Shown piece after piece: positions 20,802-20,895 of a stretch of DNA of 64,000 nucleotides (within the stretch, counting starts at the first letter, position 1; every line of letters starts with the position of its first letter). The DNA lies in IMG/VR virus record IMGVR_UViG_3300028920_000026, positions 1 through 64,000 of that record; one strand, 5' to 3'. A program made the position numbers and the translations under genes. The stretch comes from a virus. The notes under the pieces were generated by a model. That model was not told the DNA's origin. It ran no database searches and saw only the letters and a list, made by a program, of their open reading frames with translations.

Positions 20802-20895
20802 TGGAGTGCACCAGAGTCGAACTGATCGCCCAGGAGGGCGGGAGCTCCGGCCGTTTAGCCTACGCCCCCGAGGACTTCCGGTCCACATGCACCCC
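20802..20895 (-). ncRNA. tRNA-like element (canonical acceptor + T-arm, aberrant D/anticodon region; ~94 nt)
   Basis: Reverse complement: GGGGTGC...ATCAG-TTCGACT-CTGGT-GCACTCC-A. A 7-bp acceptor (one G-U) and a T-arm nearly identical to E. coli tRNA-Sec 'GGTTCGACTCC', but no standard 76-nt cloverleaf can be drawn. Length and long acceptor fit type-II or Sec-like tRNA, or a degenerate tRNA. Confidence 0.3.

Follow-up and report, generated by a model that had tools for sequence, protein, structure and literature searches.

Several kinds of irregular transfer RNA (tRNA) have been described in bacteria and their phages. Allo-tRNAs, which are found in both and are in some cases clustered with other irregular tRNAs, have an acceptor/T branch divided 8/4 or 9/3, a lengthened anticodon stem, a long variable arm and a D arm like that of selenocysteine tRNA (tRNA-Sec) (PMC5389517). 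Some of them carry a G3:U70 pair and are charged by alanyl-tRNA synthetase (AlaRS), and some, with five-stem junctions, are unused in translation (PMC5389517, PMC7609411). Over-long tRNAs with ‘enigmatic introns’, Gly(TCC) included, occur in Lak megaphages and may, as has been suggested, be widespread among large phages (PMC6784885; bioRxiv 10.1101/356790). A transfer-messenger RNA (tmRNA) reduced to its tRNA-like domain (TLD) has been noted for mycobacteriophage DS6A (PMC4131195). We describe here a 94-nt element, element B, on the minus strand of a 64,000-nt stretch of viral DNA (positions 1–64,000 of IMG/VR record IMGVR_UViG_3300028920_000026; this whole stretch is called the window below). 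Element B is a real, irregular gene of the tRNA superfamily. The reading that we put forward, tentatively and with a little less than even confidence, is that it would specify a tRNA mimic that is non-decoding as encoded, is matured like a tRNA and is possibly alanylated.

Element B begins with the G at 20895 (5′ end) and ends with the discriminator A at 20802; the letters that follow are CAAAG, so that no CCA is encoded. On the minus strand it reads, part by part, GGGGUGC AUGU GGAC CGGAA GUCC UC GGGGGC GUA GGCU AAAC GGCC GGA GCUCCC GCCC UCCU GGGC G AUCAG UUCGACU CUGGU GCACUCC A. Its features are as follows.

20802–20895, minus strand: element B, 94-nt tRNA-like element (from its sequence, its fold, the chance rate of the tRNA frame and a sub-threshold tRNA-Sec score)
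20889–20895, minus strand: 5′ strand of the acceptor stem, GGGGUGC, with G3 at 20893 (pairs 1–7, pair probabilities 0.997–0.999)
20870–20886, minus strand: D-arm-like hairpin (fold, pair probability about 0.69, and Rfam tRNA-Sec alignment)
20840–20869, minus strand: 30-nt arm at the anticodon-arm position (pair probabilities 0.87–0.999)
20828–20839, minus strand: variable-arm hairpin GCCC-UCCU-GGGC of the type II kind (pair probabilities 0.98–0.997; placed as the variable arm in the tRNA-Sec alignment)
20810–20826, minus strand: T arm, with stem AUCAG/CUGGU and loop UUCGACU at 20815–20821 (Rfam alignment and two covariance models made here)
20802–20809, minus strand: acceptor-stem 3′ strand, GCACUCC (20803–20809), and A73 (20802), read from the sequence

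The acceptor stem GGGGUGC/GCACUCC comprises seven base pairs, one of them a G-U at 3:70 (the G at 20893 with the U at 20805). It can be read directly in the sequence, as can the T stem, the T loop and the discriminator A, and all of these are just as they had been given in an earlier note on this DNA. We scanned the window for a canonical T loop with a 5-bp stem and, after it, a 7-nt strand able to pair over its whole length with a 7-mer located 40–85 nt upstream of the T loop. Three sites were found, namely two ordinary tRNAs and element B. Since first-order Markov simulations of the window yield only 0.04 such sites per simulated 64 kb, the tRNA frame of element B is not a product of chance.

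The minimum free energy (MFE) fold and the partition function concur on a five-way junction formed by the acceptor stem, a D hairpin, the 30-nt arm, the variable-arm hairpin and the T arm. The MFE of the whole element is −47.8 kcal/mol (z = −2.2 against shuffled sequences, of which 7 out of 200 are as stable). An optional eighth acceptor pair can form between A8 (20888) and the U at 20810, with a probability of 0.58 compared with 0.24 for the outermost T-stem pair; the predicted pair probabilities thus favour an 8/4 division of the 12-bp acceptor/T branch, a 7/5 division being equally possible on sequence alone. The core of the D hairpin is GGAC/GUCC (20881–20884 with 20872–20875), closed by a CGGAA loop (20876–20880) that contains GG. 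Its stem can be extended in the fashion of tRNA-Sec to six ‘pairs’, one of them a U·U mismatch, and the Rfam alignment likewise draws a 6-bp D stem. The 30-nt arm consists of a basal 6-bp stem GGGGGC/GCUCCC (pair probabilities 0.90–0.999), a 3 × 3 internal loop GUA/GGA, a 4-bp helix GGCU/GGCC and an AAAC tetraloop (20853–20856). In a check by hand the 3 × 3 loop did not fit the consensus of a kink-turn (K-turn). Nowhere in the central region of element B is there a contiguous hairpin with at least 4 bp and a 7-nt loop: the place of the anticodon loop is taken by an 18-nt loop that itself folds into the 4-bp hairpin with its AAAC cap. Element B has no anticodon stem-loop and therefore cannot read a codon as encoded.

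Standard detection tools miss the element. ARAGORN at default settings does not call element B, and Rfam does not report it at gathering thresholds. With the cutoff relaxed to E ≤ 10, an Rfam search of the 1.3 kb around the element gave no match to it, the tRNA family RF00005 included. On the 116 nt around it the sole match was tRNA-Sec (RF01852), with 18.6 bits (E = 0.11) where the gathering score is 47; RF00005 gave no match at E ≤ 10, and the search neither reported nor suppressed any further family of the tRNA clan, so the tRNA, tmRNA and Vault models fail even at this cutoff. The silence of default ARAGORN and of RF00005 bears out the statement of the earlier note that no 76-nt cloverleaf fits. 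The same note spoke of a Sec-type T arm and, as its simpler reading, of a degenerate or unusual tRNA. The cautious half, an unusual element of the tRNA family, was right, with a type-II layout resembling that of tRNA-Sec. As for the Sec label, it is backed by RF01852 being the only Rfam family matched, yet the score lies well under the gathering score.

The comparison with tRNA-Sec shows how far the resemblance goes. In the alignment to RF01852, the best-scoring curated family, the UUCGACU T loop, long D stem, variable arm and extended acceptor can each be placed; the D stem is drawn with 6 bp and the T stem with 4 bp, and 22 nt are inserted at the place of the anticodon loop. However, element B has neither an anticodon loop nor a UCA anticodon (UCA occurs solely inside the T stem), its acceptor/T branch counts 12 bp compared with 13 (8/5 or 9/4) in tRNA-Sec, and its discriminator is an A and not a G. 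With canonical tRNAs it shares a 7-bp acceptor stem, a 5-bp T stem, a T loop of the T-psi-C type and the GG of the D loop.

The likeness to allo-tRNAs is closer. The 12-bp acceptor/T branch can be read as 8/4, the variable arm is long, the stem at the anticodon-arm position has 6 bp, and the D arm can be drawn with a long stem and a very short loop. In addition, G3:U70 is present as in the subgroup charged by AlaRS, the five-way junction recalls the five-stem junctions of the members unused in translation, the setting is probably a phage and an irregular tRNA-like gene lies close by (element A, described below). The differences concern the anticodon loop (7 nt in allo-tRNAs, an 18-nt hairpin-forming loop in element B), the D arm (a loop of 5 nt compared with 4, and a U·U mismatch in the extended stem) and the discriminator (A here, G or U in most allo-tRNAs). 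On the features described for the group, on which the comparison was made, we call element B an allo-tRNA-like variant and not a member. The Lak megaphage tRNAs resemble our locus in other respects: the genes are over-long, the phage genome is very large, the insertions lie in the anticodon arm and there is no known route for their removal (PMC6784885), with an interrupted Gly(TCC) there and the Gly(UCC)-like element A here. Lak tRNAs, however, have a clear isotype and anticodon as well as insertion-free alleles, whereas element B has no insertion-free allele and its candidate anticodons clash with its acceptor.

The acceptor end of element B displays G1-C72, G2-C71, G3·U70, G4-C69 and A73, which is the full alanine identity set; AlaRS recognizes this set without contacting the anticodon (PMC7609411, PMC5389517). 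We collected, from the loci fetched in this analysis, 42 distinct sequences of 69–78 nt with GGGG/CUCC and A73. Among the 31 that are callable tRNAs, tRNA-Ala accounts for 30 (UGC in 23, CGC in four and GGC in three) and no other identity was found; the remaining 11 of the 42 are RNAs without an anticodon arm. G3·U70 is absent from the other three tRNA-like genes of the window. Judged from these letters, the acceptor of element B is of the alanine type.

Element B is not alone in its intergenic region, where two further features were recorded.

21172–21272, minus strand: element A, tRNA-Gly(UCC)-like, with a 26-nt insertion (21208–21233) between positions 37 and 38 (Rfam, ARAGORN -i and fold)
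20903–21101, minus strand: putative small open reading frame (ORF) between elements A and B, with a GTG near 21101, called in one assembly only

Element A lies about 280 nt upstream of element B on the same strand, and the two share a single 788-nt non-coding gap between a GNAT gene (21462–21818) and a 78-aa ORF. It is recognized by Rfam RF00005 (30.5 bits, gathering score 29) and by ARAGORN -i at the default threshold. Its anticodon is at 21235–21237, its position 8 is an A and its T stem has two U·U mismatches. In the fold, the anticodon is base-paired to the insertion (UUCCA/UGGAA), with a 5-nt bulge next to the 3′ junction; this predicted arrangement recalls eukaryal pre-tRNAs, although it does not form a canonical bulge-helix-bulge. 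In the 19 larger ORFs of the window, GGA is used at 19.8 and AGG at 16.9 per 1000 codons, compared with 4.5 for the rare ATA; AGG matches the tRNA-Arg(CCU) of the window and GGA the interrupted tRNA-Gly(UCC). As GGA is well used, element A looks like a tRNA that the phage would want. Elements A and B make up a small cluster of irregular tRNA-like genes, and this is a simpler explanation for the position of element B than the gene for major vault protein (MVP) located downstream.

We may then consider how element B would work as a non-decoding mimic. It would share a transcript with the adjoining genes; a search of the minus strand around it gave no promoter of the sigma-70 type and no terminator. 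RNase P and the 3′ processing enzymes would excise it and a host enzyme would add the CCA (no CCA-adding enzyme is matched by family in the window). Host AlaRS would charge it, seryl-tRNA synthetase (SerRS) being possible too by way of the long variable arm, and the product may act as a decoy or a regulator instead of a translation adaptor. Provided that the RNA is produced and aminoacylated, element B would represent an allo-tRNA-like molecule of phage origin in which the synthetase-facing half is kept and the decoding end is blocked. This would bear on the purpose of the ‘enigmatic’ over-long tRNAs in huge phages, and on the question whether irregular tRNAs have a regulatory or decoy role as opposed to that of adaptors.

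Several observations weigh against this reading. Searches of viral, metagenome and GTDB genome collections turned up no homologue of element B. DNA patterns of element B, exact and gapped, gave no match in viral contigs; the pattern gave none in metagenome contigs either, where a looser version retrieved 42 loci, and eight loci were retrieved from genome contigs (GTDB), none of these loci being like element B. A covariance model of element B run on 100 viral loci scored best, at 24–30 bits, on TLD-only tmRNAs and ordinary tRNAs, and on the window it matched only element B itself. A BLAST search of the region against phage records returned nothing, and an assembly of the same phage from a second sample (L002) is identical over 13.9 kb, so that it offers no variants. 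The fold therefore comes from one sequence and thermodynamics, without support from covariation, and its whole-fold z-score is modest. The D loop has 5 nt and is not the allo-tRNA tetraloop, the extended D stem contains a U·U mismatch, and the branch is ambiguous between 8/4 and 7/5. The neighbouring gene also matters here: the codon that the interrupted tRNA-Gly(UCC) matches is well used, a hint that this system may remove insertions, and such removal would favour an interrupted tRNA. Finally, the context names no function for a mimic; a family search of the window gave no match to SmpB, RtcB, EndA or an aminoacyl-tRNA synthetase. As a single sequence without relatives, element B is a well-described oddity and not a discovery.

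The alternative just mentioned holds that element B is an interrupted tRNA gene, in which the anticodon-arm hairpin is an intron-like insertion whose excision leaves a decoding tRNA. We regard this as somewhat unlikely. ARAGORN does call element B when introns are allowed and the threshold is relaxed (-i -ps90), as a tRNA-Gly(CCC) with a 20-nt intron at 31/32. We enumerated all excisions after which a 5-bp stem closes a 7-nt loop that has U33 and a purine at position 37. Just two families, one removing 20 nt and the other 11 nt, give such an anticodon loop, which speaks for the idea. The former yields the CCC anticodon of the ARAGORN call, which we rejected: its anticodon stem has a probability of 0.0 in the precursor, the spliced form misfolds, no bulge-helix-bulge is present and the acceptor is Ala-type, A73, G2-C71 and G3·U70 clashing with the U73, C2-G71 and G3-C70 of bacterial tRNA-Gly. 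It should be noted that the ps90 setting produces about six likely false calls in the window. Among the outcomes that the earlier note named as speaking against its proposal was a clean call of a normal, intron-containing tRNA; the relaxed call, being at odds with both acceptor identity and thermodynamics, does not amount to one. The 11-nt excision makes the better model. The MFE fold of the deleted form is a clean type-II cloverleaf whose predicted loop is GU-CCG-GA or GU-ACG-GA, both with Arg anticodons (GU-AGG-GA is also possible), and it would have A20, C35, G36 and A73, which are Arg-type elements; allo-tRNAs with G3:U70 and an Arg (GCG) anticodon are known (PMC5389517). Precedents for interruption are also at hand, in the convincing tRNA-Gly(UCC) at 21172–21272 with its 26-nt insertion at the canonical 37/38 site and in the intron-bearing tRNAs of Lak megaphages, Gly(TCC) included (PMC6784885; bioRxiv 10.1101/356790). 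However, the 11-nt excision cuts inside or beside the anticodon (33/34 or 34/35), and in a check by hand no register of a bulge-helix-bulge or bulge-helix-loop fitted any of the candidate splice sites, 20-nt or 11-nt: the central 4-bp helix of the motif cannot form, and the loop is a symmetric 3 × 3 one without staggered bulges. Neither a splicing endonuclease nor RtcB is matched by family in the 64-kb window, which is part of a 331-kb genome. A wider proposal would join both elements in a class of phage tRNA genes with small hairpin insertions in the anticodon loop, either removed by a mechanism other than bulge-helix-bulge splicing or kept to give chargeable non-decoding mimics. On this view element B would carry alanine, resemble an allo-tRNA and have an Arg-type anticodon or none, and it could serve as a recoding or decoy RNA, for instance against host tRNA-targeting enzymes; we offer this as a speculation that is unlikely to hold. 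It is doubtful, too, that element B is a decaying or non-functional relic, that is, a gene for a tRNA or allo-tRNA that a small insertion has put out of action and that is kept only by chance or because of its recent origin. In favour of a relic, element B is a singleton without detectable homologue and scores under threshold with every curated model; for allo-tRNAs, a pseudogene as well as inactive members are on record (PMC5389517), and the U·U mismatches in the T stem of element A point the same way. Yet all 30 of the 30 pairs in the five helices of element B are standard (G-C, A-U or G-U), those of the inserted hairpin included, and both the T loop and the GG of the D loop are canonical. 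Decay is expected to break stems, so intact stems count against a relic.

Two further explanations assign element B to other RNA families. It might be a TLD-only tmRNA, a tRNA-like domain without mRNA part that titrates SmpB or takes part in ribosome rescue, as suggested for DS6A, the published precedent (PMC4131195). A scan of viral contigs with a loose pattern derived from element B (GGGG ... GTTCGACTC ... CTCCA) returned tRNA-Ala genes together with many elements of about 80 nt that have the same acceptor set and no anticodon arm. In an alignment of nine of the latter, 95% of the cells are paired and 14 of the 19 pairs are changed on both sides, none of 500 shuffles being as good; those tested score 49–68 bits with the tmRNA model RF00023, over model positions 1–374. 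These viral elements consist of the tRNA-like domain of a tmRNA and have no mRNA part. Element B shares with them the alanine acceptor set, A8 and the UUCGACU T loop, it lacks an anticodon as they do, and its 30-nt hairpin with an internal loop at the anticodon-arm position has the layout of their P2 hairpin. Moreover, a covariance model built on the nine ranks element B at the top of the window with 28.3 bits. This score, however, is circular, as the seed sequences were chosen by a pattern taken from element B and most of the score comes from positions that the pattern fixed, whereas RF00023 does not match element B at E ≤ 10. Element B has neither the tmRNA D-loop motif GGNUUCGAC nor the GGAC that precedes the T arm, it does have a D hairpin and a variable arm, which are absent from tmRNAs, it encodes no CCA, and SmpB has no family match in the window. 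We thus rejected membership, the score from our own model being circular and the Rfam tmRNA model silent, and consider it highly improbable that element B is such an RNA. The other idea comes from the earlier note, which had proposed element B as an analogue of vault RNA, packaged by or working with the phage MVP encoded downstream:

17518–20127, minus strand: full-length MVP homologue, 869 aa from the ATG at 20127 (Pfam MVP_shoulder 1.7e-26, Vault_3 1.5e-10)

Both are on the same strand with no terminator between them, and element B is similar in size to vault RNAs and, like them, contains a T-loop-like sequence and lies near an MVP gene. In vault RNA, this T-loop-like sequence is the box B of a Pol III promoter. 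Element B, which the note had placed immediately upstream of the MVP operon, does not directly precede MVP itself: 128 nt separate it from the 78-aa ORF (20437–20673), which is followed by a 111-aa ORF (20127–20462) and then by MVP, all on the minus strand, and the same-strand distance to the start of MVP is 675 nt. The Vault model RF00006 gives no match at E ≤ 10 in either the 1.3-kb or the 116-nt search, and the complete tRNA-type acceptor, T and D framework sets element B apart from vault RNA. Nor is the linkage conserved. Other phage-like contigs (L003–L009) encode MVP homologues at 46–61% identity, the closest (P0002–P0005) at 49–61%, and in the relatives on four such contigs there is neither a tRNA-like element nor a non-coding gap near MVP. 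There, ORFs lie close together on both sides of MVP, its flanking genes are unrelated to those of the window, and a tblastx comparison finds MVP alone in common. On the contigs of these relatives, ARAGORN with introns detects no tRNA-like gene near MVP, its sole call being a tRNA-Met about 9 kb upstream in L008; on the MVP loci, the element B covariance model with filters off gives no match and Rfam finds nothing relevant. This is the very outcome that the earlier note had named as telling against its idea, and element B pairs naturally with the adjacent element A instead. As far as the sequences indicate, its tie to MVP would be one of proximity only; the idea of a vault-RNA analogue is not supported and can be given next to no probability, and with it goes a tempting but unsupported connection of phage MVP genes to a partner resembling vault RNA.

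The search for relatives brought up further RNAs with an alanine-type acceptor. TLDs of 77–106 nt without mRNA part are present in many IMG/VR contigs (L020, L023, L030, L036, L057, L065, L074, L085, L092, L117, L125 and others). Their layout consists of the G3·U70 acceptor, the D-loop motif GGNUUCGAC, a P2 hairpin of about 30 nt, GGAC and the T arm. DS6A aside, this TLD-only form seems to be little described in the searchable literature. Other RNAs combine the alanine-type acceptor and a normal T arm with a non-standard middle, namely those of L123/L140 (86 nt), L170 (105 nt), L059 (86 nt), L066 (6029–6121, 93 nt), L149/L175 (101 nt) and L129 (72–73 nt, two copies). Rfam matched the L123 and L059 RNAs neither as tRNA nor as tmRNA, and the L066 RNA gave a sub-threshold tmRNA score. 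The latter has a five-way layout like that of element B, with a CGGAAA loop in its D hairpin. The 7-mer GGCGUAG is common to the L059, L066 and L123 RNAs; we did not retain it as a sign of homology, the structural contexts being different.

Among the relatives of MVP in L003–L009, the genes beside MVP include those for RtcB, a Thg1-like protein, PTH2, ribosomal protein L12 and Cpn10, and one MVP-carrying relative encodes both RtcB and a Thg1-like protein. The search returned about 5000 MVP homologues in all, many of them from Myxococcota-like bacteria, and their neighbourhoods are not conserved.

Around the cluster of elements A and B, the stop codon of the small ORF lies 7 nt before element B, and its longest reading starts from an ATG at 21220, inside the insertion of element A; the encoded protein has no NCBIfam or Pfam match. 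An NCBIfam scan of the neighbours of the cluster gave nothing and a repeat search around it gave nothing informative. Directly upstream of the two elements, the gene at 21462–21818 (minus strand) encodes a GNAT-fold acetyltransferase of 118 aa, for which a search of 5.8 billion proteins returned no homologue other than itself. Some GNAT enzymes target aminoacyl-tRNAs. An imperfect inverted repeat of 20 + 20 nt, 75% complementary, occupies 21276–21315 (minus strand) immediately upstream of element A and may be a processing or regulatory hairpin.

The window matches a metagenome contig of 331,213 bp (ena:ERZ27252253:k141_1101516). The source is probably a jumbo phage, although no structural hallmark gene lies inside the window: long one-strand runs of small ORFs with few recognizable families are jumbo-phage-like. 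The two ordinary tRNA genes are as follows.

10432–10506: tRNA-Met (CAU), ordinary tRNA gene
16157–16230: tRNA-Arg (CCU), ordinary tRNA gene

The families recognized in the window comprise HNH endonucleases, AAA ATPases, a UvdE UV-damage endonuclease (411–1370, plus strand) and a GroEL-type chaperonin (1926–3524, plus strand; PHROG 2.7e-137), the latter showing 41–45% identity among the phage-record matches listed.

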